Position numbers and translations under genes: made by a program
The notes under the pieces: model-generated
What the model was told of the DNA's origin: nothing
Databases searched by the model: none
What the model saw: only the letters and a program-made list of their open reading frames with translations
Origin: Vampirovibrionaceae bacterium NZW_1234
Lineage (GTDB): Bacteria > Cyanobacteriota > Vampirovibrionia > Vampirovibrionales > JAGQHJ01
Reading direction: 5' to 3'
Length of the DNA: 64,000 bases
NCBI GenBank assembly: GCA_041697335.1
Contig: JBGUGD010000002.1
Location: 96,001 to 160,000, forward strand
Shown: positions 6,993 through 63,581 of the stretch, piece by piece
Layout: each line of letters opens with the position of its first letter
How positions within the stretch are numbered: the stretch's first letter is position 1

Positions 6993-7841
6993 ATGATGCC
7001 CGTGAATGCCCAATTATTTCTGTTGAAACCTGCCCGCAGTCGCAGTGTTCGAAACACCCGGCCTATTGGTCCCACTGCAACTCCAAAGCCTGCGGGAACA
7101 CCCGCTTCGGTTCAGTTTGGCGCCAGTAGTGCCAGCAAACGCCTGGCCTGGGGAACGGCTTTGGTAGCTGCACTAGGCCTCTCCAATGCGGTGACGTATA
7201 ACGTCGGCGAAGGGATGGGCCGCCGGCATCAAACCCAGGAAGCCGTCTCCAAGGCCCTGGAAAGCGCAGCCTTGAAAGATGTGAATAATACGATGCACTG
7301 GTGCAAAAGCGATGGGCATACCGCCCCCGGTGTCCATCACGTGGAAGCCGGGATGACCGTTCCCGGGTATTTCGATCATAAAGTCGTGGCGGATTTGCAT
7401 TGGAAGCTGGTGGATGAGAAAAAATTGCCGCCCAACCTGTTTGACGATTTGAAAAACCCCCCGTTTGTCGCCACACCGGCGGATGCGGCTGAAACCCTGG
7501 TGAACAAAATCCTGCCGCAACACATGGCCGGATTGCTTCGGGAAGAATGGTACAAGTTCGATCCCGAGGATCCGAAAGCCTTTGCCGACCGCATGCAGCG
7601 TATCTTAACGGATGGCTATGACAAAGAGGAAAAGCCACGCCTTTATTCTGACGCTGTTACTTCGAACGTGCCTCAGGAAGATAAGAATCGCCTGTTTTTG
7701 GATTACACCGGCAGTCCAACATTTAAGAACACCGATATCTTTAGCCTCCAAAACCGCCTCAGAAACTACGGTATCGACGTGGTGTCCGTCACGGTGTCGG
7801 CACAGAAGCAAGTCCCCTTGCCGCTTGGTGGGCGGGAATAG
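6993..7841 (+). CDS. Hypothetical protein with disordered leader ending in VQFG, then one hydrophobic helix
   Basis: GGAG RBS; 282-aa ORF followed by a terminator. Confidence 0.75.
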   Translation: MMPVNAQLFLLKPARSRSVRNTRPIGPTATPKPAGTPASVQFGASSASKRLAWGTALVAALGLSNAVTYNVGEGMGRRHQTQEAVSKALESAALKDVNNTMHWCKSDGHTAPGVHHVEAGMTVPGYFDHKVVADLHWKLVDEKKLPPNLFDDLKNPPFVATPADAAETLVNKILPQHMAGLLREEWYKFDPEDPKAFADRMQRILTDGYDKEEKPRLYSDAVTSNVPQEDKNRLFLDYTGSPTFKNTDIFSLQNRLRNYGIDVVSVTVSAQKQVPLPLGGRE

Positions 7842-7887
7842 GCCCAAAGGCTTAAATCCCTTATCTCTTTAAATCAGGTATCTATAG

Positions 7888-7927
7888 AAAAACGCCTCAA
7901 TCCAATGTCGTGGTTGAGGCGTTTTTC
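7888..7927. terminator. Bidirectional intrinsic terminator
   Basis: aaaaacgcctcaa...ttgaggcgttttt between convergent genes. Confidence 0.8.
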
Positions 7928-7957
7928 AGGTCGTCAAATTTCGATATGCAAAAAAGA

Positions 7958-8545
7958 TTAATCCAAATAAAAAGCCGTTACGATTTTACGGCTTTCTTCG
8001 GCATATTCAATGGCTTTTAAGAGGGTGTTGCTGGTGTGGGTGAGGAAAATAATGAGCTGCTGGCAGCTGTCGATAATTTCCCGGTTACACAGGCGGCTGG
8101 CATCGGCCAGGGTCATCACGTTCCACTCGGGATGCTCGCTGATGTGGGGTACGCCAATCAGTTGATCCTGAACATCAGAGGGCTGATGCCCAATGGTTTG
8201 GGGTAAAACAACCAGCAAACGCTCGGGATTGGCCCGCATGGCGCCACGGATGGCCGCGGCGTTGGTGCCGCTGGAACCCCCACTGGTGATGATCGTGTTG
8301 TCTTCCTTGGCCAGCATATAGGCCAGCGATTCAATCAACTGCTGGTGAGGCAGAGGGATATTCCGGCTGCCGATAATGGCGATCTGCTTGGCCTGCTGGC
8401 GCAATGCCACCAGCTCGGCGGCCAATTCATCATGCGGATCCGGGACGTCTTGATCGGCTTCCTGTATCCCTAAACTCCCTGCGACGGTAAGGTGTTTCTG
8501 CTCGGATTCGTCGCCTAAACGGCTCATAATGGTTGTTTCGTTCAT
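7958..8545 (-). CDS. Short DprA/Smf-like (SLOG fold) protein of cyanobacterial type
   Basis: IAIIGSRN...ITSGGSSGTNAAAIRGA...LVVLPQ...ASRLCNREII motifs. Confidence 0.75.
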   Translation of the reverse strand: MNETTIMSRLGDESEQKHLTVAGSLGIQEADQDVPDPHDELAAELVALRQQAKQIAIIGSRNIPLPHQQLIESLAYMLAKEDNTIITSGGSSGTNAAAIRGAMRANPERLLVVLPQTIGHQPSDVQDQLIGVPHISEHPEWNVMTLADASRLCNREIIDSCQQLIIFLTHTSNTLLKAIEYAEESRKIVTAFYLD

Positions 8546-8677
8546 GCCAAGGGTCCCGTAACTACTACTCGTGTTTCATTGTAACGCTTTTGTTTCAGAG
8601 CACTGACAGTGCTGTGTTAGAGATTATATTATATTAAAGCTCTTAAGGTGGAAAGAAATTTAATAAGAAAGATAAAC

Positions 8678-11422: not shown

Positions 11423-13174
11423 GTGTCTAAGAAAAAGAAAAAACGCCAGCAAACGCTTCAAAAAGAACGGATGAACCGGTCACAGGCCAACCCCCCTGCG
11501 GCGATTCCCGTGTCGCCCTCGACGGGAATTCCCATGGTACAAAACCCGGGGAGCGCGAATAAACCCAATATCATTGTTCAGATCTTGGAAGAAAATAAAA
11601 AGTTGTCGGAATGTCTTCTGTGGCAGATGCAGGAAGATTTTTACAACAATGCCGGGATTGAGGCGTGGAACCAGGTTCCCTTTTACCCCACCTGTAATGC
11701 GTTTATTGGGCGTACCTACGCTGAGATGATTCTGGCGTTTCTGCTTGACGTGAAAGATCAGCTGAATCCGGATGAGCCTATTTATATCGTGGAAATGGCA
11801 TGCGGTACCGGGGGACTCAGTTTTTATCTGGTGAAGGATTTGTTGAAGCGGATTGCCCATTATCCCTCCCTGGCGTCCTTGCGCTGGGTCTACGTGATGA
11901 CGGACTTTACGGAGAATAACGTCAGTGCCTGGGAGAAAAACCCGAAATTGCTGCCCTTTGTGGAAAAGGGCGTCATGGACTTTGGGGTGTTCCGTCCGGA
12001 AGATCAGCGGGAAGTGTACTTACGCCAGTCGAAAGTGACCTTGTCCCGGGAGACCGTGAAAAACCCCATTATCAGTGTGGCCAATTATTTCTTCGATACC
12101 ATTCGGCATGATCTGTTTCGGATTGCCGATAAAAAGCTTCTGGAAGGGCGTGTGTCGTTTCATCGCGAGTTGGTCGAGGGGCAGGATTCGGAACAGACCC
12201 CGCCTACGTTTGGCGATCTGCGAAAAACCGAGTCGTTTTCGCCGGTGAGTGCCGATTATTATGATGATCCCAAGCTCAATGCCATTCTGAAGTACTACAT
12301 GAATGCCTTTGACAACGCCAGTGTGTTGTTTCCCATCAGTTCCTTCAAGTGCCTCTCCAATCTGCAATACATGTCCAACGATCGGTTGGTGCTGATTTCG
12401 TCGGATAAAGGGTTTACCCAGGCCGAGTATATGCAGGATCACTGGGATCAGAACTTTGCGGTCCATGGATCCTTCTCGTTTATGGTGAATTATCACTCGA
12501 TTGGATTGTTCTTTGAACAGCAGGAAGGGACGTTCTGGTCTACCAAGGAACGCACCGGCTGTTTGGCCACGGTCATGGGTATCATGATGCCCGGCATGGA
12601 CCAATCTCGCTTTGAAAATAGCGGCTATTACTTCTTGGAGCGGGTCGATAACGAGAATCCCATTAACAACCTGTATTTCTGTCAGGACCTGCTTCACGTA
12701 GTGTCGCCCCAGCCTCGCCAGAAGGATGCCATTTTTAAAGCCTCCCTGTCTCTGCTGAAGCTGAGCAACTACGACCCGATTGCCTTCTACTTTATGGGCA
12801 ATAACCTGTATTCGGCCATTACAGAGCTGGATTGGTCGCAGCGCGAATCGCTGTATCACGCGGCGTGCGTTGTGAAAGACAACTTTTACTATATTCGTCG
12901 GGACTTTAATACCTTGTATTGGGTGGCCAAGATGTTTTACGGGTTGGATCGCTTTGAAGAGTGCCGTCAAACGTTTCTGGAATCCATCGAGTTGTTTGGT
13001 GTCGATGATCAGGCGCTCTATTACATTGCTGCGTGTAATGAGGTCCTGGGTGATTCTGAGACAGCGTTACTCTATTATCGTAAAACCCTGGAACTGGATC
13101 CCAATTGCGAATTGACCAAATCCGGTATTCAACGGATGCTTGCAAAGCTTGGTCAGGGGGCGCCGACTCACTAA
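11423..13174 (+). CDS. SAM-methyltransferase-like (MidA/NDUFAF7-type) domain protein with C-terminal TPRs
   Basis: IYIVEMACGTGGL motif I, VMTDF, VANYFFDTI; TPR-like ALYYIAAC...ALLYYRKTLELDP. Start uncertain (11396/11423/11471). Confidence 0.65.
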   Translation: MSKKKKKRQQTLQKERMNRSQANPPAAIPVSPSTGIPMVQNPGSANKPNIIVQILEENKKLSECLLWQMQEDFYNNAGIEAWNQVPFYPTCNAFIGRTYAEMILAFLLDVKDQLNPDEPIYIVEMACGTGGLSFYLVKDLLKRIAHYPSLASLRWVYVMTDFTENNVSAWEKNPKLLPFVEKGVMDFGVFRPEDQREVYLRQSKVTLSRETVKNPIISVANYFFDTIRHDLFRIADKKLLEGRVSFHRELVEGQDSEQTPPTFGDLRKTESFSPVSADYYDDPKLNAILKYYMNAFDNASVLFPISSFKCLSNLQYMSNDRLVLISSDKGFTQAEYMQDHWDQNFAVHGSFSFMVNYHSIGLFFEQQEGTFWSTKERTGCLATVMGIMMPGMDQSRFENSGYYFLERVDNENPINNLYFCQDLLHVVSPQPRQKDAIFKASLSLLKLSNYDPIAFYFMGNNLYSAITELDWSQRESLYHAACVVKDNFYYIRRDFNTLYWVAKMFYGLDRFEECRQTFLESIELFGVDDQALYYIAACNEVLGDSETALLYYRKTLELDPNCELTKSGIQRMLAKLGQGAPTH

Positions 13175-18270: not shown

Positions 18271-19452
18271 ATGTCATCACTATCGCCTATGGCGGCTACA
18301 GGACAACCAGCATTTTTCACTTCTCTAGGGCCTACCTCGACCCCCGGCGGATTTTCCGGCCGGAGCTTCGGGACCCCCGGTTTGGTCCAAGGGTTTGGCT
18401 TCCCCTCGTTTGGTGATCCGAATTTCTATTTCCAACCCGCAGCCAGTAGCTTTTTCATTAACCGTTTGTTGGGTTATGCCAATGGTTCGGCCGTTAACAT
18501 CAATGTTGGCCCGACACCGTCCACCTTGGGCTTTGGTGGCCTGTTAAATGGTCTGCCTTACTATGGTGATGCCGGTTCGCCGACGGAGGATCCGTTTGCA
18601 GGCTTCGATCAAAGTTTTGGTCAAGGCTTTGGCGGTCCCCAAGGGTTTGGTGGTCCTCAACAAGGCTTCGGTGGTCCTCAAGGATTCGGTGGCGCACCTC
18701 AAGGGTTTGGTGGCGCTCCCCAAGGATTCGGTGGTGCACCCCAAGGATTTGGTGGCGCTCCCCAAGGATTCGGTGGTGCACCTCAAGGGTTTGGTGCTCC
18801 GCAAGGATTCGGTGGCGTACCCCAAGGGTTTGGCGCTCCGCAAGGATTCGGTGGCGTACCCCAAGGGTTTGGCGCTCCTCAAGGATTCGGTGGCGCACCT
18901 CAAGGATTTGGCGCTCCGCAAGGATTTGGTCTCCCTCAAGGCTTCGGTGGCGCACCTCAAGGATTTGGCGCTCCGCAAGGATTTGGTCTCCCTCAAGGCT
19001 TCGGTAGTTCCCCCGCTTTGGGTGGTTTTGGTGCTGCCTCCGCTCTAGGCGGTGTGGGTAGCATTCCCTTTGCCGGTGGTGCTCCGGCAGGCTTTGCCCC
19101 ATCCAGCGCTTTAGGCGGTGTGGGTAGCATTCCCTTTGTGGGTGGTGCTTCAGCAGGTCTTGCCTCATCCAGTGGCCTGGGCAGTGGTATTCTCGGAAGC
19201 CTCGGCTTTGGTAGCGGAATTGCCGGACTCGGAATTAATCCGGCCGCAGGAGCGGCCCCAAGACCATCGGCTCCGATGGGCCCTATGCCCGGCGGAATGG
19301 GATTACCTCCGATGGGTTTAGGCGGTGCTCCTTCGATTGGACAGCCTGCCCCGACGCAGCCTGCGTCCAACTCGGCATCCTTGCTGAATAGCGTGCTAAC
19401 GTTTGTGCTTCTGTTAGCCGTACTGAAGCGCCAGCAAGGCGACGCTGCATAA
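18271..19452 (+). CDS. Gly/Phe/Pro-rich low-complexity protein with (G)GAPQGF repeats and a C-terminal hydrophobic helix
   Basis: AGGAG RBS; repeats vary mainly at third codon positions in this frame; ends [17 protein letters not shown]. Confidence 0.8.
18622..19002 (+). repeat. Coding tandem repeat of 18-21-bp units (ggtggcgcacctcaaggattt type)
   Basis: Roughly 18-20 PQGF-containing units. Confidence 0.9.
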
Positions 19453-19606: not shown

Positions 19607-21403
19607 CTATCTTTTACGAATCAGAGTGAAGTTAATCAAACCGTCAGTTTCAGAACGGTCGATCCCGTCAAGGCCAGTAGTATTGATGGTATCAGCCCAG
19701 TTGCTGATGGCGGTGGCTTGACCACCTAAGCCTGCAGCACCGCCGCTGAGATCAACGGTAGAGGTGCCTAAACCGGTAGGCATTTTGGTGCCTTGCAGGA
19801 AGAGAGAACCGCCGGAGCCACCGTTACCACCGTTACCGGCAGTAGCGGTTGCTAAATCAGCTTCTGCAAATGCGTTTTGGCCGTTGCCACCATTGCCACC
19901 CTTGCCTTCAATGATACCGTAGTTGTTGAAGTTGGAGACGTAGCTAAAGGATACGGTTCCACCGTTGCCACCGTTACCACCATCTTTACCCACCGAGTCT
20001 TGTGTTGAGGGTGTGGCAGGAACGGCCGCTGTGCCTGTAGTTTGGCTCACGATAACGGTGTTCGAGCTGATGACTTCGGTGAAGTCCAACTCAATGTTAG
20101 TCCCCTGCTGATTGGGGCGAATTTTGACAAGCAACTTGTTGTTGGCCGAAACAGGCTGGGTCCCGACGCTATTCACAAAGTTAGAATCTAGCGTAAAGGC
20201 AACCTGGGCCGTGGTGTTTCCTGAGAAGGTGTAGTTGTAGGTCCCCAGGGTTGTGGTGCCTTGTTTAAAGACCAGTTGCACTGAAGTGGTACCGTTGTAG
20301 GTGGCTGTTACGGTATAGTCACCCAGATTCAGGCTCCCGTTGAGGGCAGAAAACTGAGGGCCGGAAATGGTGATGGGTGTCCCGGATTGGGCCGAGGTAA
20401 TCACAACAGAGGCCACGGTATTTTCATAGGTACCGAGTTGACCGGTGACGTTTTCGCCCGGAACGGCGGGAGACCCTGGTGTTCCGGGGATTAATTCACC
20501 GATGGCGGTGGTGGTGTAGGTACCACCATTGCCACCATTGACTTGAATTTTGGCGCCTTCGGCCACGGTGGTGGTGTTGGCAGAGTTGAATTCAATACGG
20601 CCACCATTGCCGCCGTTTTGTGCCACAGCATTCGCCGGAGAATCAGCATCTACTGTGTAGCCGTTGCCACCGTTAGCGCTAACGAGGGCGTTAGGGCCAA
20701 CATGGAGATTTTGGCGGGCATTGACCCGAATAAAGCCACCATTGCTTGCGGCTGCATCGGCCAAAGTAACGCCATTGGCTTGAACGATCCCGTCGATGTT
20801 CACCACACCGCCGTTAAGTTCGATGTTGGGGTTGGCTGCGACGAGGGCTGGGCCACCGCTTGCATCCAATGTGGCATTTTGTAAGACTTGGATATTGTTG
20901 CCCGTGCCGGCGGCGTTGACAACAATGCGTCCGCCAACACCGTTAGAGCCGGTGGCTTGGGTCAAGGAGCCAGGGCCAAAAGCGACACCACCCACATTAA
21001 AAGCAATAACGCCACCTTCAGTCCCGTTGGCAGTGATGTTTCCGTTTTGGAACACGTAAGCAGCGTTGATATTGACTTGGCCGCCTTTGCCACCAGCACC
21101 ATTGGCATTCAATTCACCAAGAATGGTGAGAACATTGTTGGGCACGGTAAAGTTGATTTGACCGCCATCAACCCCGTTGACGGCACGGTAGGTTACGCCG
21201 GGTTGCAGGGTGATAGGTGCGTTATTGGAGCTGGTCACGTTAATGACAGATGCGGTTACGTTGGAATTCAAGCTCCCGCCGGTGGTGGCAGCATTGATAT
21301 TAATTTCAGAGGCGAATGCCGAAGGCAGCATCACCATGGGCAAGCTGAGGGCAACGACGGCAGAGGCCGCTTTGTACAGAAAATTGATGGGGGAATTTAC
21401 CAT
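19607..21403 (-). CDS. Secreted Gly/Asn-rich beta-helical protein, TpsA/adhesin-like
   Basis: Sec signal peptide ending SAFA; repeated GGxI/VxIxA and GGNGG rungs; AGGAG RBS; adjacent to a TpsB gene. Confidence 0.75.
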   Translation of the reverse strand: MVNSPINFLYKAASAVVALSLPMVMLPSAFASEININAATTGGSLNSNVTASVINVTSSNNAPITLQPGVTYRAVNGVDGGQINFTVPNNVLTILGELNANGAGGKGGQVNINAAYVFQNGNITANGTEGGVIAFNVGGVAFGPGSLTQATGSNGVGGRIVVNAAGTGNNIQVLQNATLDASGGPALVAANPNIELNGGVVNIDGIVQANGVTLADAAASNGGFIRVNARQNLHVGPNALVSANGGNGYTVDADSPANAVAQNGGNGGRIEFNSANTTTVAEGAKIQVNGGNGGTYTTTAIGELIPGTPGSPAVPGENVTGQLGTYENTVASVVITSAQSGTPITISGPQFSALNGSLNLGDYTVTATYNGTTSVQLVFKQGTTTLGTYNYTFSGNTTAQVAFTLDSNFVNSVGTQPVSANNKLLVKIRPNQQGTNIELDFTEVISSNTVIVSQTTGTAAVPATPSTQDSVGKDGGNGGNGGTVSFSYVSNFNNYGIIEGKGGNGGNGQNAFAEADLATATAGNGGNGGSGGSLFLQGTKMPTGLGTSTVDLSGGAAGLGGQATAISNWADTINTTGLDGIDRSETDGLINFTLIRKR

Positions 21404-21800: not shown

Positions 21801-23546
21801 ATGCCTTCTTTTGTAATGCTTTTTAAACCCAAATACCGGTTTATGCTGGTCTCGGGGGTTGTAAGCGCCTCTGTTTTTTTAGTCGCAAACGTGTCGATAT
21901 GGGCACAAGTTCCTACTCAGGCTAATCCGGGTGTTTTGCTGCCTGCACCTACTGTGCAGGTGCGTCAAGAGCAGCAGCAGACCCAATCAAAGTCACTACC
22001 TTCAACACAAAACACGCCAGAAAAAACAACGTTGGATCGGCCGGACGATTTATCTTCCGTGGCCATTCCTGAGGTCCGGTTTTACCTGGACAAACTGATG
22101 GTTGAGGGCAGTACGCTTCTGTCATCAAAAGATTTGGAAGCACTGATGGCGCCCTATGAGAAGCGAGAAGTTACTTTTGACGATCTGAATCAGGCAGCGG
22201 CCAAGTTGCGGGCGTATTATCACGACAAAGGGTATTTCACCACCTATGTATTTATTCCCCCCCAGGACGTGGATGACGGGATCCTTCGTATCAAGGTCCT
22301 GGAAGGCCGCCTTGGGAAGCTATCAGTAGACAAGAATCGATATTATCGGGATTTTGTCGTTACACGACAGTTTCGGGCCAAGGCGGGCCAATTGTTTAAT
22401 TACAAAACCTTTGAAGAGGATATTAATTTAGCCAATCAACTGGCTCCGTACCAGGTGAAGGCTGTTCTGAATAAAGGAGAGCATTCTGGAGAAACCGACA
22501 TTACGCTCAATGTGGTTGATAAGCAGCCATGGCAAATTTCGTTAACCGGCGATAACCAAGGACGCCCCTTTATTGGGATGTATCGCGGCGGCGTTGATGT
22601 TACCAATCAAAGTTTGCTGGGACTGGGTGATCGCCTTTTTACCCGGTATTATGGGGCCTCCGGAACACAAGTGGTGATGGGATCCTACAGTGTTCCAGTT
22701 AACCGTTTTGGTGATGAGGTTAGTGTTAACTACAGTTACAGCCATGTTGATGTTGACTTAGGCTTGAATGTTCCCCAACAACCCATTGTAGGGACCGCGA
22801 AAAGCTATGGCATCGCTTATTCTCACCCTCTCAATAAAAAACGTTCGCTGGTGTCCGATATCGGGCTCAATCTGCGGACGATTGATTCCCGGGTTGATAG
22901 TACACGCGTTAGCCATGACGAAATTCGAACCCTTCAGGCCGGAATCTCGTTTAATGAATCCGATCGCCTGGGCCGAACATCGGGGCGTTTGCAGCAGACG
23001 GTGGGCATCGGGTTTTTGGGCGGAAACCGGCAATTTTTCAAGTCTGAAGCCATGGTCACCCGCTTATTGCGACTTTCTGAATCAAATACCTTGATTTTAA
23101 AAGGCTATGGCCAGCTGACACCCGATGCGCTGCCCACCGCCGAAGCCTTTCAGATTGGCGGCGCTTACAGTGTTCGAGGCTATACAGAGGGGCTGTTGAT
23201 TGCAGATCGGGGATTTTCGTTCAGTGCGGAAGATCGGTTTCCCATTCCATTTTTAAGCCGCATATCCCCCAAGATGAACAATCGGTTACAAGGCGCAGCC
23301 TTTTTTGATGTGGGGCGGGTGTGGCTGGATTCCAGCAACTCCCGTTTCGGTGCAGCATCGAATCAGGCGAAGAATTCACTTCTAATGAGTGTCGGTGTTG
23401 GCGTTCGTGCTCGACTGACCCGCTTTGTTCAGGGCTTTGCCGATTTGGGGGTGGGTTTAGGGGACAGAAACGGCGTAACCCGTCCCAACGGCGATCCGAC
23501 GGTACGGCTTCACTTTGGGCTTCGTTCCAACCTGCTGCCTGAATAA
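21801..23546 (+). CDS. ShlB/FhaC/HecB-family two-partner secretion transporter (TpsB)
   Basis: POTRA (VEGSTLLS...YHDKGYFTTYVFIPPQDVDDGILRIKVLEGRLG), barrel motif FQIGGAYSVRGY, AAFFDVG. Confidence 0.92.
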   Translation: MPSFVMLFKPKYRFMLVSGVVSASVFLVANVSIWAQVPTQANPGVLLPAPTVQVRQEQQQTQSKSLPSTQNTPEKTTLDRPDDLSSVAIPEVRFYLDKLMVEGSTLLSSKDLEALMAPYEKREVTFDDLNQAAAKLRAYYHDKGYFTTYVFIPPQDVDDGILRIKVLEGRLGKLSVDKNRYYRDFVVTRQFRAKAGQLFNYKTFEEDINLANQLAPYQVKAVLNKGEHSGETDITLNVVDKQPWQISLTGDNQGRPFIGMYRGGVDVTNQSLLGLGDRLFTRYYGASGTQVVMGSYSVPVNRFGDEVSVNYSYSHVDVDLGLNVPQQPIVGTAKSYGIAYSHPLNKKRSLVSDIGLNLRTIDSRVDSTRVSHDEIRTLQAGISFNESDRLGRTSGRLQQTVGIGFLGGNRQFFKSEAMVTRLLRLSESNTLILKGYGQLTPDALPTAEAFQIGGAYSVRGYTEGLLIADRGFSFSAEDRFPIPFLSRISPKMNNRLQGAAFFDVGRVWLDSSNSRFGAASNQAKNSLLMSVGVGVRARLTRFVQGFADLGVGLGDRNGVTRPNGDPTVRLHFGLRSNLLPE

Positions 23547-24572: not shown

Positions 24573-26510
24573 ATGTCCCTCGACATTTCTCCAGCACCAA
24601 TCCGAATGACTCCCCCTCGGGTGTCGGGTGTTGTGGTGCCACCGCAACATTCAGGGCAACAGCATCGCCAGGTGTCTTCGCCGCGTTTTGGCAACGGGCT
24701 GATGAACGGGGCGGATCGCTTTGTCAGTTGGTTTGTGCGGAATTTATACGATCGGGGGGAAGGGTTTCGGTATCTCGTTGAGCAGACCTTGGGCTATACG
24801 GCTCCCCGCACGATTCAGCAATTAAACCGCACTCGCTCCATTACGGGTAAAGGCAATGAAATGGCTGCCCAGGAAATGTTGATTCGGGACTTGGCTGCCG
24901 ATTTCACCGATACCATCCTGCCAGGACTGATTGCCACGTTCGGTGTTGGCTGGGTCATGGATCGGATGGGTAAAACTCTGTTGCAACGTAATATGGGGCA
25001 TGATGCGCTGGCTTTTTATCAGCATATGGCCCGGGGTGCCAAAGGCGCCGCTGTCAGCCAAGCCGAGTTTTATCAGGGCATTGAAACCCGACTCACCGAC
25101 TTTGCCAAAGCCTCGAAGGCCACACCGGCAAAAGCGTTGAATTTGAAAGCGCTCATCAACGAGATGCGCAGCAGCAAGCATATTGAGGATGTGGAAAAAA
25201 CCATCGCCACGCGTTTAGGCCTGAGCCACTATGACGTTAAACTGGCCTATGGCAATAAGAAGCATTTGGAATTGCCCTTGCGGGATTTGGTCAAAGATCT
25301 GTGGCATATTCGCCAAGGCGTAAAAACGTCCAATGTCGGCAATGCCTGGGGCAAAGAAGCGCTCGCCATGGTCCAAAAAACGGCCGGTAAAATGAAGTGG
25401 CAAATGCTTGGCAATGTGGCGGCATTGGTGGCCAGTATCAGCATTCCCTTTGTTGTGCGACTCATTACAAAACGCGTCTATGGCAAAGATGCATTTCCGG
25501 GGACCAAGGAATTGGAAGAGCACTTTAAAACCCCTGAGGCAAAGAAAGCCCAGGATTCCAAGCGATTTGTCTGGTTTCCCTATCTTCAGGAGACCCTGAA
25601 AAACGGTAACTGGACACCGCTGGCCATCACGGCTGGGTTTTTTGCCGTTCTGGGTGGTGTGGTGCTGCGCCGGTTTCATTTGGCCAAAGGCAGCATCTTC
25701 CGATTTAAAGACTGGGTCAAAGTCTATGAGTTTCAGCGTCACTTTCCGTTTACCACCGTGACCCAGATGGAGCTGACCTATGGACTGTTATGCGGCATGC
25801 GTCTTGCAGCCAGCCGGGATCAGGCCGAGTTTCGTGAAACGGCAATCCGTGACTGTCTCCTGGGTTGGCCCACGTTGACCTACTTCTTCCCGATGTTTCG
25901 CAAGTTCTTAAGCCAGCAGTTTAACCAGCGCTTTTTGACCAAAAAGTTTCGCACCCCCAATTTGCTCATCAAGCCTAATGGCGAGGTTCGAGGCAGTCAT
26001 GAAATGACCCCGGAATTATTTAAAACCATGGGGCTGGGAGCAAAAGCAAGCACTGCCGTTCAGTCTGCCAAAAAATATCAATCCTGGATTACGTTTATTT
26101 CAGCGCTGACATCGTGGGTGATGTTGGCCTTTGCGGAGCCTCAGTTGGGTATTTGGCTCACCAACTCATTGGAGTTGCGGCGCTTAAAAGGGCTGTCGCA
26201 GCAGAAAGGGCAGGAAGCATCAACAGCAACTTCCCAGAGCCAAGAGAATCAGGAACCGCTTGAAGGATCAAAGCCATCTCATGCATCCCAACGTTGGGCG
26301 ACCGAATCACTGGCTGAGCTGGACCACCATCAGCCCGCAGTGATGTCCATGCCTGCCATAACGCCACTTCAGTCTGCTTATGAAGCCAACACAAATGGCT
26401 ATTCGATTTATCCTGCAGGTAATTGGGCTTCTGCCTGGAATGGTTGGCAGCCCATTCCTTATACCCCTGCAGCATATTCCCAGGCCTCGTATCCACATTA
26501 CGCATCATAA
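24573..26510 (+). CDS. Hypothetical multi-pass membrane protein downstream of the lysine riboswitch; N-terminal PRFG motif
   Basis: 645-aa ORF with several hydrophobic helices and disordered termini. Confidence 0.85.
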   Translation: MSLDISPAPIRMTPPRVSGVVVPPQHSGQQHRQVSSPRFGNGLMNGADRFVSWFVRNLYDRGEGFRYLVEQTLGYTAPRTIQQLNRTRSITGKGNEMAAQEMLIRDLAADFTDTILPGLIATFGVGWVMDRMGKTLLQRNMGHDALAFYQHMARGAKGAAVSQAEFYQGIETRLTDFAKASKATPAKALNLKALINEMRSSKHIEDVEKTIATRLGLSHYDVKLAYGNKKHLELPLRDLVKDLWHIRQGVKTSNVGNAWGKEALAMVQKTAGKMKWQMLGNVAALVASISIPFVVRLITKRVYGKDAFPGTKELEEHFKTPEAKKAQDSKRFVWFPYLQETLKNGNWTPLAITAGFFAVLGGVVLRRFHLAKGSIFRFKDWVKVYEFQRHFPFTTVTQMELTYGLLCGMRLAASRDQAEFRETAIRDCLLGWPTLTYFFPMFRKFLSQQFNQRFLTKKFRTPNLLIKPNGEVRGSHEMTPELFKTMGLGAKASTAVQSAKKYQSWITFISALTSWVMLAFAEPQLGIWLTNSLELRRLKGLSQQKGQEASTATSQSQENQEPLEGSKPSHASQRWATESLAELDHHQPAVMSMPAITPLQSAYEANTNGYSIYPAGNWASAWNGWQPIPYTPAAYSQASYPHYAS

Positions 26511-30705: not shown

Positions 30706-31101
30706 CTAAAAGCTTTGTTCATGAAACTGATAGGGGACGTTTCGTTTGGCAAAGCGTTTGAATAAGTAGGCGTCGACTTTCTTGCTTAGTTCCAATTCTT
30801 TTGTGGTGTGGGTGGCTCCCACGGTGGTGTCGATGCCGGCCCAGTGGTTGTTGGGCTGGGCTTTAATGGGTGTGACCCGGATGCGAGCCTTGGGAAAACG
30901 TTTCATAATATCTCGAACAAGTGCTTTCAGTTTTTTCATCGACGATGGTGGCCACTCGATATAATCAAAGCCTGTATTGGTCATGACAATGCGTCTGTCG
31001 AGTTTACGCTGGTGATGCCGGATGGGAATCCCCAGGAAAAGCCCAGCGGAAAATCGGGGCGCCGAGGATGAGGAGTAGGAGAGGATTGGGCGGATGTTCA
31101 T
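30706..31101 (-). CDS. Hypothetical protein with N-terminal PRFS motif
   Basis: 131-aa ORF starting MNIRPILSYSSSSAPRFSA; convergent with the toxin-like gene. Confidence 0.65.
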   Translation of the reverse strand: MNIRPILSYSSSSAPRFSAGLFLGIPIRHHQRKLDRRIVMTNTGFDYIEWPPSSMKKLKALVRDIMKRFPKARIRVTPIKAQPNNHWAGIDTTVGATHTTKELELSKKVDAYLFKRFAKRNVPYQFHEQSF

Positions 31102-31270
31102 GAAGAGCGGCCTATGTTGTCCCTTATTATCGAGCTAGCACAATAAAAGGCATCAACATCCAAAATTGCCTAAATGGCCTTGAACACGTGAAGCCGTGTT
31201 TACACACGGCTCTCTTATACCAAGGCGCGACACCAAGGCAAGCCCTTGCGCTCAACGGGTTTTGTGTTGC

Positions 31271-40794: not shown

Positions 40795-41239
40795 CTCTGT
40801 ACCCGCTATCGATATGTGACTGCATTTTAGGTGAAAGATACTCACCAATCAAACCTGACGCTGCAATGTGATCCAGAGTTCCTTGCCAAAGCATGTAATC
40901 GACATCATTCAATCGAGATGTATAATGCTCTTTGGCATTGGCACTGTGTCGAAAGAGCAAGGCGAGCACTTTATTTTTCCGGTTGCAACTAGTTGAGAGT
41001 TACTCTCAATAAGAGGATCAGGGAAACAGGTTCTTAACAATTCTTTGTACTCCCTACGCCAAAACCATCGAACCGCTACAATAAATTTTGGAGTCCTCGT
41101 GTTCATCCCCATTAAAACACGAGGATGCTGTCATATTGGGTCTTTAGGGAATAGCACAAAAAGTTATGTTTGGGTTTTATATAGCTGTTAGCATTCACTT
41201 ATGGGCAAAGTCTGCCGTACCAGGGGATGGGGGATTGCC

Positions 41240-42019
41240 TTGAACATAGCACCACAACACAATCTGCGCTTTAAATCGTCGCTGCCCATAGCCAGCCGAC
41301 TGCTAAGCCCCCGTGAGCTTCTGATTGCCGGAATTGTTACCCGCATGGCCAGTGGTCTGCTTCGGATTGAAGAAAATGTGCCTACAGAAAACCGCAAGCC
41401 TCAACTATCCAAAGAGCAAAAATGGGCTTCCTTGTGTGAGCGAATCTTTATGGAGGCTATCGGAGTCCCCTTTCATGTGCTGACCTTGTACTTTTTGCAG
41501 GAGCCGGTGTCAAAACTTTTTGAACGCTCCCCTTTTCTCAAGCCTCCTAAGGTCACAGGGCTGCTGGGTGAAGCCAAAGTCCATCAAAAAGCTATCAATA
41601 CTATTCTGCGTCGTGCCTACGCACCGAACTTGGCTTCTATCCCCCACGGCATCGTAGCCAAGCAGATCTATAATCGGGCCGATCTGGTTCAAAAAGTTGC
41701 CAATGTTCGCTCGTTAATTGCAGAAAAGCTCGGTTCTGCCTTTACACCTCAGGTTAAGGCTGCTGTGAATGCCAGTCTTATGAACTATCAGCGACGCTTA
41801 TGGGTTGCCGCCGCCGCTACCATTGGTGTGGGTGTTGTTGGCGCTGCTTGGTTGTCAGGATATGTGCTGCAATTGCTCAATGACACCCTGGTGTCCAAAA
41901 AAGTCATTCCGGCCATTTTGGATTGGTGCGGGTTGTCATCCGGGAAAAAGCCAAAGACTGAAGCCTTTATTCCAGGCCCTCCTCCCAGTGAAATGCAAGA
42001 CAAGACGTTTCGGATGTGA
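41240..42019 (+). CDS. Hypothetical membrane protein with N-terminal LRFK motif
   Basis: TTG start MNIAPQHNLRFKS; three hydrophobic segments; TGATG overlap with the next gene. Confidence 0.7.
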   Translation: MNIAPQHNLRFKSSLPIASRLLSPRELLIAGIVTRMASGLLRIEENVPTENRKPQLSKEQKWASLCERIFMEAIGVPFHVLTLYFLQEPVSKLFERSPFLKPPKVTGLLGEAKVHQKAINTILRRAYAPNLASIPHGIVAKQIYNRADLVQKVANVRSLIAEKLGSAFTPQVKAAVNASLMNYQRRLWVAAAATIGVGVVGAAWLSGYVLQLLNDTLVSKKVIPAILDWCGLSSGKKPKTEAFIPGPPPSEMQDKTFRM

Positions 42020-43077
42020 TGCTTATGAGAGTGCCTGTGACGCCACGTTTTGCCGCAACACCCATGAGTTCTTCCGTAAGACTTCTGGTCAAAAACTCGG
42101 GTACGTTGCTGTCTGACTTCGCATATGGACGCATTCATAACATTCAAAGCTTTCGAGATAATGCCTTTATTTTTTCCTCGCTGATTCAAGTCTTATCCCG
42201 AATTTTTGTCGCCAATCGCTCAGCTCAACAGACCCGGAACACCCCTGAAGGACCCTACCGTTACTTGGAAGCGGTGAAAACCACTTTTAGAGAGGCCATG
42301 GGCTTTTGCCTCAGCTATCTGGTGCTTCGGGCTTTCCAGCGGGGAGCCATTGATTTCTTTCGTAATTTTCTTCATGTGCGTTCCGGCCTCTCGGCAGCGC
42401 CCACCCTCTTTAATGGTTTGTTCCGTCGCATGTTCAATGCTCCGGCTTATGTGTCCTCGAGCAAAGGTTATTTCCCTTCCTTCTTTGGGACACTGAAGCA
42501 GATTGGTCAGGAGGTGGGTCATTACTTCCGCGGCACTCAAAAGTCTTTGTCCTTGAAACCCATTGATCACCTCTTCCCTGATGTAGTCAAAAATCAGGAA
42601 ATTGTCTTTAATCCGGCGCGTTACAAGAAGCTCTCCAGTCTGGTTGAGGTGGTCAATCGGGTTACATTCAGCGATATGAAGGCTTCTCCGGCACAAAAAT
42701 TAAAGGTCTTTTTTGATTGGGTGCCCGTTCTTTTAGGGTCCATCCCGACGATTCTGCTGAGTGGGTTGTGGTTGGAGCGCTTCAGTCAAACCAAGGCTGA
42801 GCCCTTGGCTAAGAAAATAGCCAATTTTATGCAGCCGGTTTCCGCTCAACAGAAGCCTGCTCAGGTTATTGACGTAGAACCGCCCCAATTGTCCAATTCC
42901 GATGCCCCGCTTGGCGCGCTTGATCCCAGCGACTCTGTTGCGTATGCTAATAATGCTCCCGTTCCGGTAATTCAAACCCCTGTTGCGAGTTTTCAATATG
43001 GCCCAGCCTTTCGAACCGGATTCCCTTATCCTCCCGCTCTCTGGGCGTGGGGGCAACGTTATTTGTCTCGGCGCTGA
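42019..43077 (+). CDS. Hypothetical membrane protein with N-terminal PRFA motif
   Basis: MLMRVPVTPRFAA start; layout resembles the upstream gene. Confidence 0.75.
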   Translation: MLMRVPVTPRFAATPMSSSVRLLVKNSGTLLSDFAYGRIHNIQSFRDNAFIFSSLIQVLSRIFVANRSAQQTRNTPEGPYRYLEAVKTTFREAMGFCLSYLVLRAFQRGAIDFFRNFLHVRSGLSAAPTLFNGLFRRMFNAPAYVSSSKGYFPSFFGTLKQIGQEVGHYFRGTQKSLSLKPIDHLFPDVVKNQEIVFNPARYKKLSSLVEVVNRVTFSDMKASPAQKLKVFFDWVPVLLGSIPTILLSGLWLERFSQTKAEPLAKKIANFMQPVSAQQKPAQVIDVEPPQLSNSDAPLGALDPSDSVAYANNAPVPVIQTPVASFQYGPAFRTGFPYPPALWAWGQRYLSRR

Positions 43078-47105: not shown

Positions 47106-47559
47106 GCGTAGAATACCCCCAACCAAACGTCTTTTCTATGTCTGTCCTGTGTCCAACTGCATAAAAACCAGGAATCTAAATTTTTTGTTAATGTTTTTAT
47201 TTTTTTACGAAAAAAATTTATATAGACGTCAGTTTTGTATGCTTTTTCTACGCTCTGGGCTTATTTTGAGACAATGAGGGTGTATTGTGAGCTTTTATAC
47301 TTGTCTCTGAAGGGGTGTGCTGGTATCCGAAGTTAGAGGAACGGAAAACTTTTCCGTTCCTCTTGAGGGATCTGCTGACTAGAACGCGGGTTGGCAAAAC
47401 AAGAATGGCAAATCCACCAGAGATCCCACTCGCAATAGGACTCGGTCGCTTGGGGGGCGATTGGGGTGTCAAAGGATGTTTTACTTTTGATTCCAGTTTC
47501 AGTACAGTATCAGTACTCAATTCGTTTTTTATGGCCTGCTACGAAAGGGATGATGTGTG

Positions 47560-54750: not shown

Positions 54751-54763
54751 GGTTGGTAGACTC

Positions 54764-59072: not shown

Positions 59073-59111
59073 GTGTTGAACACGGGTGGTTTGAACAAAC
59101 TAATCAAACTA

Positions 59112-60080: not shown

Positions 60081-60158
60081 GATTCATGTATCCACAAACG
60101 AGCGCTTCACAATACAATGTTAAAACATACCCTTACTCTACTACACGGTGATTCAAAG

Positions 60159-61292: not shown

Positions 61293-61318
61293 ATCTTCTT
61301 CGGGTGTAAAATACCCCT

Positions 61319-62038
61319 ATGACGACTTTGATTTTACGCCATTCATCAGACAATAGCTTGGGGCATCTGGTCGAGGTACTGGAACGACGCAATTTGCCCT
61401 ATCTCTATTGGAATGTCCATGAAATGGCCTTTGGAGACTTTGTTTTGCCCGACAATACGTCGATGTTGGTGGTCCTGGGGGGCATGATGAATGTCGATCA
61501 GACTCGTAAATATGATTTTTTGCTCCCGGAGCGGGCTTTTATCCGCCAATGCTTTTTAGATGGGATGCCCATCTTTGGCATTTGCCTCGGGGCACAACTC
61601 CTTGCTCGTAGTCTTGAGGCACCCGTGACCAAAAATCCCACCAAGGAGGTGGGTTGGACCCCGATTCAGCTTACGACCGAGGGGTACTCAGACCCGGTTT
61701 TGTCCCGGTTGGGCGATGGGATAGCTCAGTTTCAATGGCATGAAGATACTTTTGCCTTGCCTCATGGGGCTTCTCATTTGGCTTGGAATGCCGACTGTCA
61801 AAATCAGGCGTTTCGCTTGACCCCCTACGTGTATGGGGTTCAATTCCATCCCGAAGTTGATTTCGATACGATCCGAGGTTGGTTGAACAGCTCGAAAAGT
61901 CTTTCACCCGAGCGTGCGGACGAAATTTGGTCTGAAACCCTGGCTCATTTTGAAACCAGGAAGAGGGCAAGCCAGGCAATGTTTGACGCGTTCTGCCAAC
62001 AGGCGTCACTTGCGCCATCCGTTTGTCAGGCAAAATGA
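61319..62038 (+). CDS. Type 1 glutamine amidotransferase
   Basis: GICLGAQLLA, QWHED, GVQFHPE. Confidence 0.9.
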   Translation: MTTLILRHSSDNSLGHLVEVLERRNLPYLYWNVHEMAFGDFVLPDNTSMLVVLGGMMNVDQTRKYDFLLPERAFIRQCFLDGMPIFGICLGAQLLARSLEAPVTKNPTKEVGWTPIQLTTEGYSDPVLSRLGDGIAQFQWHEDTFALPHGASHLAWNADCQNQAFRLTPYVYGVQFHPEVDFDTIRGWLNSSKSLSPERADEIWSETLAHFETRKRASQAMFDAFCQQASLAPSVCQAK

Positions 62039-62051
62039 TTTTTTAAACTCC

Positions 62052-63581
62052 TTATACGGCAGCTTGCTCCCGATCTCGAGGATTTGGACGGTCCGCCTGA
62101 GCCACAAAGGCTCCGGAATGACAAGCGGTCATAAACAACTTTGCAGAGTGGAAGTCGGCCATATAGGTATTAAAGTAAGCTTTGAGCTGATCTTCGGTCA
62201 GATTGACGGGGCGTTGTCCGCCTCGACCATCCGGGACGTTTCCGATATGGACGTACCCTCGGAGGGCGCCTTGACGATGAGCCTCTTGCTGCGGTAATCC
62301 GGCTTCGACCCCATCGGTACTCCCATGCCCTAACACGGCGACTAAGGCTTCTGCACCGGGATTTCGAGATGAAAACTCCCGCATTCTTTGGAAAGCCTGC
62401 TGCATGGCTTCTGGCGTGCAATTTTCAACGACTTCAATATTGTCATCGGTAACCCCGTAGCGATCCTTGGTCATTTGTACTAGGCGTTGCCGATGATCTT
62501 GTAAAACGGCACCGTCACTATGGGGATCTCTGCTGGAGGTGGGGCCAATGAAGACGAGCACTCGCCGAGGGCGTCTCTCTCGCTGGTCCCACCCTTGGGT
62601 TCCCTGGCTCGACTGGACCGGGTGTTCGCAGGGCTGATGCCCCATTAAGGGTCTGGCAATAGTGCCTTGGCTTGCGGCACGATGTGCTTCATCGATGGTA
62701 TTGCAACGTCCGAGGGCATCCAGGAACATGGTCATACGATCCTGATTGCGTTCGGCTTGAACGTAGGTGACCTGGTCCTGGCCTGAGCTGGCTAAGACTT
62801 GGGTATTCCGAGGCCAACGATTTGTTAATCTGGAATCTTGTGTGTCCAGCTGGGTACGTTGTCCAACAAGCCCATATCGGCGCTGCAAAGAACCCATTGT
62901 GCTAATATTTGCCTGCTCTGATTGACGTGCGTCTTGAAGTGCTTCTGCTGCTTTGTTTCTGAATAGACCAATTCCCCAACGGAACAGGCCAGCCAACGGT
63001 TTTAGTAAGAGTGGTGGATTTTTCCACCAGTTTAAACGATTGTCCCACTTATTAAAGCGCTGTTCACAACTGCGCCGATGTTCACGCAATTGGGGGTATT
63101 CACTTCGAACACGGATTATTTCTTGATTCAGCCGTGCCGATTCCTGAACGAAGACATTTTCTGAGGTGTTGGCTTGCCGACCTTCCAGTTCTGCAAGATA
63201 GGCTTGATCAAAGTCACGATTGGCGAGTTGTGATTGTTGCATCGCTAAATCTGATGTCTGGCGCTGCTCAATGATTCTTTGAGCCAATGACGGGTTGTGG
63301 CTGAGTCGGGCTCGTATTTGCTCGGGTGAATAATAACGTGAAAAATCCAGTATGCTTTCTCCCGGAGCCAGACGCATTTGACCAGCTTCAATAGAGCGGA
63401 TGATGTCCTCATTCAGTCGGTTATAGCGGCTGGACCAATTTTGTTGGTTTTGAGCCAGATAACGTTCAATGGCATCCACGCGGGGGCCTACATCGCTTAC
63501 GGATCTGAGAGGATTCCCAAACGATGGATAGGGTTGCGATACTCGGCTGTGAAAGCTTGGATTAACCGTTCCCACACTCAT
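62052..63581 (-). CDS. Hypothetical protein with N-terminal PSFG motif, coiled coil and C-terminal caspase-like (clan CD) peptidase domain
   Basis: RRVLVFIG...ALVAVLGHGS...KLFMTACHSGAFV, the His-Gly and Cys dyad pattern. Confidence 0.7.
   Translation of the reverse strand: MSVGTVNPSFHSRVSQPYPSFGNPLRSVSDVGPRVDAIERYLAQNQQNWSSRYNRLNEDIIRSIEAGQMRLAPGESILDFSRYYSPEQIRARLSHNPSLAQRIIEQRQTSDLAMQQSQLANRDFDQAYLAELEGRQANTSENVFVQESARLNQEIIRVRSEYPQLREHRRSCEQRFNKWDNRLNWWKNPPLLLKPLAGLFRWGIGLFRNKAAEALQDARQSEQANISTMGSLQRRYGLVGQRTQLDTQDSRLTNRWPRNTQVLASSGQDQVTYVQAERNQDRMTMFLDALGRCNTIDEAHRAASQGTIARPLMGHQPCEHPVQSSQGTQGWDQRERRPRRVLVFIGPTSSRDPHSDGAVLQDHRQRLVQMTKDRYGVTDDNIEVVENCTPEAMQQAFQRMREFSSRNPGAEALVAVLGHGSTDGVEAGLPQQEAHRQGALRGYVHIGNVPDGRGGQRPVNLTEDQLKAYFNTYMADFHSAKLFMTACHSGAFVAQADRPNPRDREQAAV

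Follow-up and report, generated by a model that had tools for sequence, protein, structure and literature searches.

A short N-terminal tag on about 300 proteins of a Vampirovibrionia bacterium and a flagellum-derived export machine as its candidate reader

Whether proteins with nothing else in common are sent to one destination by a common N-terminus is the question raised by the window, a 64,000-nucleotide stretch of contig JBGUGD010000002.1. The preliminary description had noted six dissimilar orphan ORFs here, whose leaders end in a similar tetrapeptide, and proposed a secretion signal. All six ORFs and the words quoted for them were found at their positions, and none had a Pfam or NCBIfam match above cut-off, in agreement with their description as orphans. 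They are listed below together with two ordinary genes of the window.

6993..7841, + strand: 282-aa orphan ORF with a leader; VQFG at 7110-7121, Phe at residue 42, posterior 0.98
24573..26510, + strand: 645-aa helical orphan with hydrophobic helices; PRFG at 24681-24692, posterior 0.99
30706..31101, - strand: 131-aa orphan ORF; PRFS at 31048-31059, posterior 0.99
36535-37440: cation transporter, an ordinary gene; partial tag score 0.72
41240..42019, + strand: 259-aa orphan with hydrophobic helices; LRFK at 41264-41275, posterior 0.92
42019..43077, + strand: orphan of about 350 aa; PRFA at 42043-42054, posterior 0.99
47560: NadA-like, an ordinary gene; partial tag score 0.37
62052..63581, - strand: 509-aa orphan; PSFG at 63516-63527 with PSFH just upstream, posterior 0.23

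The tag in the window and in the genome

The motif model and its posteriors were trained on our own genome-wide gene calls, made with a home-made gene caller. The consensus at the leader end was [VPLI]-R-F-[GSA], with Arg at -1 in 72%, which replaces the P-x-F-G form first suggested. About 300 of the 2,859 proteins of this genome, or about one in ten, were tagged. When the N-termini were compared with shuffled controls, as the preliminary description had proposed, 236 of the 2,859 proteins reached a posterior of at least 0.9, versus 3-11 in each of 20 N-terminal shuffles and 2-3 proteins at four internal offsets. Genome-wide, [VPL]RFG occurred 103 times at N-termini versus 4 times internally, and permuted or substituted words were found there only 0-12 times. 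The motif is genuine and genome-wide. An origin by chance, by a start-calling artefact or by a DNA-level repeat has a negligible probability: although the gene caller was home-made and chance would account for about 40 of the 350 matches at posterior 0.5, the signal held with longest-ORF starts (193 of 2,178 proteins tagged, versus 21 at internal positions and 32 on average in shuffles), and the tag was kept in homologs. The shuffles, the permuted words and the free variation of the motif's synonymous codons among tagged genes refute this origin. Because the codons are free to vary, the motif is a label at the protein level. No description of it was found in the literature searched, which comprised main texts, largely outside the subscription journals.

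Five of the six ORFs belonged to the motif set with posteriors of at least 0.92, and the sixth, 63581, was a weak member because its posterior was 0.23. The latter protein matched Pfam Peptidase_C14 at E=0.048, below cut-off, and carries the words GHG and ACHSG near its C-terminus, a His/Cys pattern that we take to be caspase-like; a PDB sequence search with its C-terminal part returned nothing below E 0.16. The gene at 41240 starts with TTG, and an in-frame ATG at 41201 is possible instead. The next gene overlaps its stop and starts with ATG at either 42019 or 42025. Homologs of this second gene were found in 31 of 200 other genomes of the class, with the same gene order in all; the tag was clear in two of three same-family homologs and missing from most distant ones, and most homologs in families f2 and f3 (42025 start) had none. 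Among the sequencing runs listed as containing the 31101 gene, there was no RNA run.

Leaders of tagged proteins were acid-poor and Ser/Pro/Arg-rich, with Asp plus Glu at 3% versus 10%. Signal-peptide-like starts, defined by a hydropathy rule as a hydrophobic core within the first 35 residues, were seen in 3.5% of 289 tagged proteins versus 19% of 2,351, which bears out the reported lack of Sec peptides and sets the tag apart from Sec/Tat signals. The tag Phe had a median position of residue 17 in the 236 proteins, lying at or before residue 19 in 133 and at or beyond residue 30 in 61. A disordered leader running up to the fold start, as had been described, was confirmed for the 24573 protein, in which residues 1-39 were disordered and the fold began at residue 42. 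In its family, the tag stood just ahead of the core in 30 of 34 members; leader length and sequence turned over while the tag stayed, with Phe between residues 8 and about 80. For the 24573 model, Foldseek returned nothing at E 0.001, VIA-align gave a best Z of 5.9 over 82 residues, and atlas searches yielded Melainabacteria clusters only, plus a weak MTP18 lead at 0.82. We regard the leader plus [V/P/L/I]-R-F-[G/S/A] as a protein address tag on about 300 proteins.

Contrary to what had been supposed, the tag was not confined to orphans, nor was it wholly absent from the ordinary genes of the window, two of which (listed above) scored partly. Proteins without a Pfam match made up 53 of 86 tagged proteins versus 22 of 70, an orphan excess, and the remaining 33 of the 86 tested had Pfam matches. 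Citrate synthase, amylomaltase, AAA proteases and several dehydrogenases have second copies that carried the tag, and the paralogs of these copies did not; several tagged proteins were Lon, Clp-like or FtsH-like. Altogether, 50 of 310 tagged proteins had an untagged paralog, and in 36 of these 50 pairs the tagged copy began at least 10 residues earlier. Catalytic words, searched as sequence patterns, were present in the tagged enzyme copies. A eukaryotic origin of these enzymes was rejected: judged by family scores rather than trees, they best match bacterial families and are therefore not captured host genes.

Many tagged genes had in common a promoter-like element (GCAA, T-run, TTGA, TTTTAT), whose function is putative. 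It was found before 32-36 of 131 held-out tagged genes versus 33-46 of 1,600 untagged genes, and before 19 of 45 tagged orphans versus 3 of 28 tagged proteins with Pfam matches. Among the amylomaltase-like genes of relatives, which come in tagged and untagged copies in families f7, f4 and f3, it preceded 15 of the 21 tagged copies and none of the 7 untagged ones. With the same element model, none was found before the structural genes of the second machine described below. Two putative elements lie in the window.

31143..31170, - strand: promoter-like element, 68 bases before the 31101 start; element-model score 15.0
41152..41180, + strand: weaker promoter-like element before the 41240/42019 pair; element-model score 7.4

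A second flagellar-type export machine

The survey of secretion loci that had been proposed revealed two flagellar-type export cores. The genome encodes two sets of FlhA, FlhB, FliP/Q/R, FliI, FliF, FliE and FlgB/C/F/G; set 1 is the ordinary flagellum, and set 2 has an export gate, ATPase, MS ring and rod genes. A plasmid type IV system was reportedly proposed in 2015 for Vampirovibrio-like predation. In this genome (94.75% complete), VirB4 was not found, nor were a T6SS sheath or a microcompartment shell; targeting to a microcompartment by the tag was rejected, as no shell gene was found. A search for the nucleotide translocase TLC gave no match, and the control likewise had none.

In a quick tree, the second FlhA formed one clade of 18 rows with an SH-aLRT of 100, and the set-2 export core kept 64% identity between distant families. 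Set-2 FlhA and FliI scored higher with flagellar than with injectisome models, below both cut-offs: FlhA had 586 bits against the SctV cut-off of 692 and 678 against the FlhA cut-off of 772, and FliI had 545 bits against the SctN cut-off of 605. The SctV and SctN cut-offs that would mark a non-flagellar injectisome were thus missed. The two secretins of the genome sit in pilus-type gene clusters.

An FlhA-family match was present in 176 of 261 genomes of the class (f7 84/84, f8 9/9, f9 11/11, f5 1/83, f10 0/2). The gene of a sigma-28-like factor adjoins the second FlhB, and this factor was matched in all 93 genomes examined from families with FlhA, in none of 25 from f5 and in neither of 2 from f10. 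Set 2 and the sigma-28-like factor were kept in relatives without flagellin, stator and torque ring: in genomes picked by hand, flagellin was found in 4 of 17 (f7), 0 of 5 (f8) and 0 of 7 (f9), and in set-2-only genomes the MotB plug was seen in 0 of 4, FlgI in 0 of 4 and FliG_C in 0 of 3. The genome studied here has a single FliG_C and a single FlgI, both of set 1, and no P ring or outer-membrane ring was found for set 2. It also has two MotB genes, and a set-2 stator is therefore possible there. Set 2 is predicted from its gene content not to rotate.

The set-2 lytic transglycosylase was tagged (0.98) and its set-1 paralog was not (0.01); this tag was kept in 14 of the 16 nearest homologs and in few of 103 more distant ones. 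Most set-2 rod proteins were untagged. Several further candidates failed. The set-2 gene in the FliG position had a profile probability of 0.7% as FliG, and PDB sequence and fold searches gave no clear link. Two small orphans after the set-2 ATPase were rejected as chaperones, occurring in 3 of 121 genomes with two marginal foreign matches. The predicted complex of the set-2 FlhA cytoplasmic domain and the 24573 leader (residues 16-58) scored 0.00.

To follow the tag across the class, random samples of 100-400 kb were used, a size at which a tag on a few percent of proteins can be neither demonstrated nor excluded. In families other than that of this genome, the motif was for the most part no commoner than expected by chance (f2 1/83, f3 4/71, f4 1/58, f7 11/358 with 10.6 expected, f8 4/59, f9 4/104); f6 was borderline with 7/88, and one variant motif in f7 gave 20 versus 11.5 +/- 3. 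Families f6, f8 and f9 keep set 2, with the motif borderline in f6 and at chance in f8 and f9. The zero in f5 (0/95) says little, because families bearing set 2 were also near chance; with samples mostly at chance, it is a few gene families that tie the tag to the machine. Tagged genes were found in the flagellin-less f7 genomes G005, G030, G070, G147 and G231; in G147 and G231, those checked, the set-2 FlhA was the only FlhA seen. In a Gastranaerophilaceae-type orphan family, Phe was kept in 120 of 120 members, and gut-type relatives had Ser or Asn in place of the tag Arg. As variants also occur in other families of the class, the signal is not lineage-specific in the narrow sense once proposed.

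Comparison with known systems

The gate recognition motif of early flagellar subunits has a Phe and, at +4 from it, a hydrophobic residue. According to the available text of Bryant et al. 2022 (PMC8983047), these subunits carry a two-part export signal, an N-terminal hydrophobic signal plus the gate recognition motif, with at least 19 residues needed between the two. The tag resembles this signal as a short, hydrophobic and chaperone-free motif that lies in an unfolded N-terminal stretch, and in having a hydrophobic residue 3 (51% of tagged proteins versus 29%). However, its median Phe position leaves too little spacing, the position +4 from Phe was hydrophobic in 20% versus a background of 29%, and the tagged cargo is non-structural.

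CesT-family class I chaperones bind the beta-motif of injectisome effectors. Like class I effectors, tagged proteins are otherwise unrelated to each other, have no signal peptides and begin with a disordered stretch poor in acidic residues. Unlike them, they are not enriched in the beta-motif, which, searched as a sequence pattern, was present in 2 of 236 tagged and 23 of 2,261 untagged proteins; the chaperone-binding motif suggested earlier did not hold. No CesT-family chaperone was matched in the genome, and the control genomes were equally without a match. Set 2 also differs from an injectisome by its flagellar rod genes.

The basal body of Buchnera reportedly keeps a flagellar export core without a filament. 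In Lysobacter enzymogenes OH11, a filament-less flagellar export core secretes enzymes against another microbe, as stated in the available text (PMC7688988). Set 2 is similar in retaining the core without a filament. However, it is a second, paralogous set in a genome that also encodes a complete flagellum, forms one clade over most of the class, and goes with a sequence tag common to hundreds of proteins. Within the class, the scaffold order of ACD20, flgG, flgG, flgC, fliF, fliH, flhA, fliI, as given in the consulted part of Di Rienzi 2013 (PMC3787301), is the set-2 order. Partial flagellar sets of Melainabacteria were there, and in Soo 2014 (PMC4040986), read as genome reduction or motility loss, and a 2026 preprint postulates secretion in one sentence (bioRxiv 10.64898/2026.04.24.720558). 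As far as their main texts were available, none of the three distinguishes between two sets of paralogs or points to a signal on the substrates.

What the tag may do

Apart from chance, four readings compete with export by set 2. N-terminal basic-hydrophobic protease signals exist, and the tag might mark the proteins of a single life stage for docking or degradation in the cytoplasm: expressed with the help of an alternative sigma factor, they would be recognised there by an AAA+ protease or an adaptor and would stay in the cell. The common promoter-like element, the mostly single tagged genes (operon-internal in 7% versus 24%) and the tagged Lon, Clp-like and FtsH-like proteins favour this reading; we hold it to be unlikely, as the acid-poor leader, the scarce signal peptides, the orphan excess and the conservation of a motor-less export core are left unexplained. 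Alternatively, set 2 might be a channel to a compartment of the bacterium itself, a spore-like or daughter cell or the periplasm, which the tag stocks with a second enzyme set. The missing rings, a cargo resembling a whole second metabolism and a sigma-28-like factor travelling with the machine would fit. However, ATP, NAD and CoA, on which these enzymes depend, are absent from the periplasm, and the literature on these bacteria, in the parts available, mentions no other such compartment, which makes this quite improbable.

The fate of the leader could also lie in the recipient. An acid-poor, Ser/Arg/Pro-rich leader with an Arg-Phe-Ser-like end appears to resemble organelle presequences; the leader may thus mimic a mitochondrial or plastid transit peptide, with the tag as host processing site and the export signal elsewhere. 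The leaders are indeed acid-poor and Ser/Thr/Arg-rich, and many cargo enzymes have organelle-matrix counterparts. Usual transit peptides, however, are longer than the 19 residues within which more than half of the tags lie, Arg is replaced in the gut-type relatives and the enzymes fit bacterial families best, so we give this reading a similarly small chance. Export of the tagged proteins by set 1, the ordinary flagellum, is likewise quite improbable: both FliD caps match the tag (0.84 and 0.97), some other set-1 subunits match weakly, and flagellar export of non-flagellar proteins is known (PMC7688988, available text), but tagged genes occur in the flagellin-less f7 genomes, two of which show the set-2 FlhA only.

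We infer from the sequences that tagged proteins are probably exported with set 2 as the reader, and consider it fairly probable that the tag is a chaperone-free type III export tag, with delivery probably into a host or prey cell. The sigma-28-like factor would transcribe much of the cargo from the common element. The acid-poor N-terminus would go into the second FlhA/FlhB/FliPQR gate, and Arg-Phe would dock on a cytoplasmic part of the machine, replacing a chaperone. Cargo would then travel a rod-like conduit, the cluster's own lytic transglycosylase opening the wall, and end in a cytoplasm, most likely that of the host or prey, since many of the enzymes in the cargo depend on ATP, NAD(P) or CoA. 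There the enzymes would convert the recipient's contents, and the hydrophobic orphans would sit in membranes.

By analogy with its kin, the organism is presumably a predator or parasite. To our knowledge, type III export signals are famously without a consensus, and a tag of four residues shared by about 300 substrates would, if true, be an unusually clear and testable one. It would also offer a second candidate, beside the type IV system, for how Vampirovibrio-like predators empty algal cells. More tentatively, and with doubt somewhat the stronger, most Vampirovibrionia, gut members included, may possess an injection machine that evolved independently from a flagellum, does not rotate and has a sigma factor, a promoter and a chaperone-free tag of its own. 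In this genome it would ship a tenth of the proteome, among it a second set of proteases and of enzymes of core metabolism, into a host or prey cell that then serves as an external metabolic reactor. In that case protein-injection machines would have arisen from the flagellum once more, and the 'degenerate flagella' of the uncultured gut Gastranaerophilales would be a working secretion system, which hints at dependence on host cells and may explain their uncultured state.

The N-terminal tag and its leader

The genome under study (G000; 3.70 Mb, 41 contigs, completeness 94.75%), in which the window spans C34:96001-160000, yielded 3,067 genes with a home-made gene-calling model; for 2,859 of its proteins, a motif was fitted to the N-terminal 70 residues. 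The fitted consensus was [S/P/A]-[V/P/L/I]-R-F-[G/S/A]-[G/S/A], hereafter the tag. At a posterior of at least 0.9, 236 proteins carried it, whereas 20 shuffles gave 3-11 and internal offsets 2-3. At a posterior of at least 0.5, 350 proteins matched against 30-56 in shuffles, indicating approximately 300 genuine tagged proteins. The count for the word [VPL]RFG was 103 N-termini as against 4 internal windows, and substituted or permuted words were found in 0-12 N-termini. The excess persisted with longest-ORF starts (193/2,178, versus 21 internally and a shuffle mean of 32). Codon use at the tag varied like that of the remaining genome, indicating selection at the protein level.

Six window ORFs, starting at 6993, 24573, 31101, 41240, 42019, and 63581, had been proposed to share such a word. 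The ORFs and their words were located as described; five of them scored 0.92-0.99, but 63581 scored 0.23.

Ser, Pro, Thr, and Arg were abundant in tagged leaders, whose Asp plus Glu share was 3%, compared with 10% in other N-termini. This composition is that of type III N-termini. Of 289 tagged proteins, 3.5% had a signal-peptide-like start, compared with 19% of 2,351 untagged ones. The tag Phe lay at residues 4-66 (median 17). The model of the 24573 protein shows a disordered stretch over residues 1-39 and a fold that begins at residue 42. Leaders in the 24573 family ranged from 8 to ~80 residues, and the tag was kept in 30 of 34 members (27 by pattern, 3 by eye), 22-32 residues ahead of one fixed core position; the other four sequences start at or within the core. 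In this family the residue preceding Phe was variable (Arg, Thr, Gln, Lys, Gly, or His).

Tagged cargo and its distribution among relatives

The Pfam scan covered 86 of the 289 tagged proteins (those within fetched loci) and 70 of 110 untagged proteins drawn at random, one drawn gene being left out as a mis-started form of 41240. At E 1e-8, 33/86 tagged and 48/70 untagged proteins had a match (p = 0.0002). Orphans therefore dominate the tagged set, but the tag does not mark orphans exclusively. The tagged enzymes included citrate synthase, isocitrate, malate, glutamate, and aldehyde dehydrogenases, thiolase, enoyl-CoA hydratase, amylomaltase, guanylate kinase, and nicotinate/nicotinamide phosphoribosyltransferase, together with Lon, Clp-like and FtsH-like ATPases, a subtilase, and a calpain-like protease. 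A few tagged matches (LptA-like, DegT-like, and uracil-DNA glycosylase) were plain false positives.

An untagged paralog was present for 50 of 310 tagged proteins, and in 36 of these 50 pairs the tagged copy began at least 10 residues earlier. Identity to the untagged paralog was, for example, 55% for citrate synthase and 42% for malate dehydrogenase; by eye, the pairs could be seen to include adenylosuccinate synthetase, inositol monophosphatase, and HtrA. The tagged enzymes mostly retained their catalytic words, and their best family scores were to bacterial families.

Homologs of window proteins bear the names Vampirovibrionales, Melainabacteria, or Cyanobacteria HKST-UBA03, which places G000 in the class Vampirovibrionia. 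Families of this class are coded f1-f11, f1 being that of G000 and f7 being Gastranaerophilaceae-like, going by the name of a homolog with 68% identity; f5 may be Obscuribacterales, given its genome size and its lack of flagella. Applied to three f1 relatives, the G000 model gave 9/83, 4/95, and 4/53 matches, against ~1 by shuffle. Random samples outside f1 were mostly at chance level (f2 1/83, f3 4/71, f4 1/58, f8 4/59, f9 4/104, f5 0/95); f6 gave 7/88, and f7 gave 11/358 against 10.6 expected, or 20 against 11.5 in the first variant of the motif test. A Ser/Asn form occurs outside f1: in one orphan family of f7, I-x-F-S is retained, and Phe is present in 120/120 listed members. In f7, f4, and f3, amylomaltase-like genes come both with and without the tag. 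Most f2/f3 homologs of the window protein 42025 (the 42019 ORF, counted from a second ATG) lack the tag, and that of the set-2 transglycosylase (see below) is kept in its nearest homologs only. The Ser/Asn form and the tagged amylomaltase-like copies argue against a narrow lineage-specific signal; the tag would thus be class-wide in origin, present also in f7, f4, and f3, and much expanded in f1. Two further proteins, a thioredoxin and a flavin oxidoreductase from f3 and f2 (L063:8910-9368, genome G017; L061:8494-10029, genome G004), have an extra leader that ends with a tag-like word.

A second export gene set and a shared promoter-like element

G000 has two FlhA-family genes. One belongs to an ordinary flagellum (set 1: rings, hook, caps, and flagellins), and the other to a second flagellar-type export gene set (set 2).

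Parts of set 2 by contig of G000
C32: FlgF, FlgG, FlgB, FlgC, lytic transglycosylase, FliE, FliF, an unrecognised gene in the FliG position, FliH, FlhA, FliI
C29: FlhB and a sigma-28-like gene
C8: FliM/N-like, FliO, FliP, FliQ, FliR
C30: FliJ, FliK-like, a short FlgE/G-like gene

For set-2 FlhA and FliI, flagellar models outscored injectisome models, yet the scores fell below both cut-offs. FlhA-family genes were found in 176/261 class genomes, including nearly all of f1-f4, f6-f9, and f11, but 1/83 in f5 (a partial match) and 0/2 in f10. In a quick tree (midpoint root, no outgroup), set-2 FlhA formed a single clade of 18 rows, separate from 11 set-1 rows. Among 62 hand-picked genomes, flagellin was present in 4/17 of f7, 0/5 of f8, and 0/7 of f9. 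The MotB plug and FlgI were absent from four flagellin-less genomes and FliG_C from three, while rod genes were kept in three of the four checked. Passages of Di Rienzi 2013 (PMC3787301) and Soo 2014 (PMC4040986) take partial flagellar sets as loss, as does one of Utami 2018. Because these rotation-related parts are absent from flagellin-less genomes, and set-2 FlhA of G000 is 64% identical to that of flagellin-less f7 genomes, the prediction for set 2 is an export device that does not rotate rather than a flagellum in decay.

G000 also has two MotAB pairs (G000:C10:135779-137695 and C4:11627-13225) and two FliD caps (C5:100662-102452 and C5:141547-143340). Both caps have N-termini that match the tag, which hints at a possible origin of the tag in a flagellar signal. 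A free-standing protein (L052:1920-3398, genome G147; also G231, G243, and G001), seen in f7 and f4 and not in G000, has a C-terminal part similar to the cytoplasmic domain of FlhA (25-34% identity); it is a possible extra substrate receptor.

Upstream of tagged genes, mostly 55-120 bases ahead of the start, lies the element [A/G]GCAA-T-run-N5-TTGAGG-N2-3-TTTAT. An element model built from one half of the tagged genes recovered it ahead of 32-36/131 held-out tagged and 33-46/1,600 untagged genes (p < 1e-17). With a model trained on all, it preceded 19/45 tagged orphans, 3/28 tagged genes with a Pfam match, and 2/20 untagged orphans. The window scan gave a strong site for 31101, a weaker one for 41240, and none before 6993, 24573, 42019, or 63581; set-2 structural genes lack it. 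Among relatives' amylomaltase-like genes, a similar element preceded 15/21 tagged and 0/7 untagged copies, counted on related sequences with a pattern picked after window scores and two f3 rows of unclear start excluded. The sigma-28-like gene adjoining the second FlhB had matches in 93/93 genomes of FlhA-bearing families and none in f5 (n=25) or f10 (n=2); its product would read the shared element.

Beyond an ordinary FliA-like factor, G000 has two paralogous sigma-28-like factors (G000:C16:18950-19630 and C29:179899-180600). The element exists in two variants, which might match the two paralogs. Acid-poor N-termini were also found in 38 untagged genes with strong elements, so the regulon may exceed the tagged set. 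Other window genes are as follows.

11423-13174 (+): weak methyltransferase-like N-terminal part, C-terminal TPR repeats
18271-19452 (+) and 46341-47126 (-): Gly/Phe/Pro-rich low-complexity ORFs with GFGG-like repeats, the latter with a weak promoter-like element (score 7.6); G000:C12:35402 has a similar N-terminus
19607-21403 (-) / 21801-23546 (+): divergent pair made up of a repeat protein rich in Gly and Asn that has a signal peptide, and an outer-membrane transporter of the ShlB/FhaC type (Pfam); looks like two-partner secretion
23687-24166 (+): Ser/Thr-rich orphan directly ahead of 24573, element 8.0, untagged
27272-30679 (+): orphan of 1,135 aa that combines long coiled coils, a hydrophobic patch in the middle, and a separate C-terminal domain, without tag or family match; looks like a polymorphic-toxin layout

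Export and its alternatives

The tag is probably a signal for chaperone-free type III export that set 2 reads, a judgement that includes its reader and destination. This reading is favoured by the type III-like leader, the lack of Sec signals on the cargo, and the failure to find another one-step secretion system. VirB4, a T6SS sheath, and a microcompartment shell were not found in G000 at its 94.75% completeness. Genes with the tag were found where the only type III gate seen is that of set 2, which again favours set 2; export by the ordinary flagellum is very improbable. Since ATP, NAD(P), or CoA is required by many of the cargo enzymes, these should work in a cytoplasm. A docking or degradation signal acting in the cytoplasm is unlikely, and it is decidedly improbable that set 2 is a channel to a second compartment of the organism itself. 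Equally doubtful is a leader that targets a host organelle; such targeting could be an additional property of the longer leaders.

The preliminary secretion-signal reading is partly supported, by the acid-poor leader, the rarity of Sec signals, and a candidate type III machine; the tag is not orphan-only. Its likening to a chaperone-binding beta motif is not supported, since the tag differs from the motif of class I chaperones. The tag also lacks two of the features that define the early flagellar export signal. For V. chlorellavorus, a passage of an earlier paper (PMC4451040) describes attachment-pad spikes into Chlorella and emptied prey cells, and assigns this to a plasmid type IV system. 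A 2026 preprint (bioRxiv 10.64898/2026.04.24.720558) postulates secretion in a single sentence. No published description of the tag motif was found in a literature search covering mainly open-access papers, and look-ups for the promoter and the enzyme duplicates gave no result. New here are the size of the tagged set, the leader-bearing enzyme duplicates, the distinction of two export cores, and the promoter and sigma factor. We infer that the tag represents type III export addressing.
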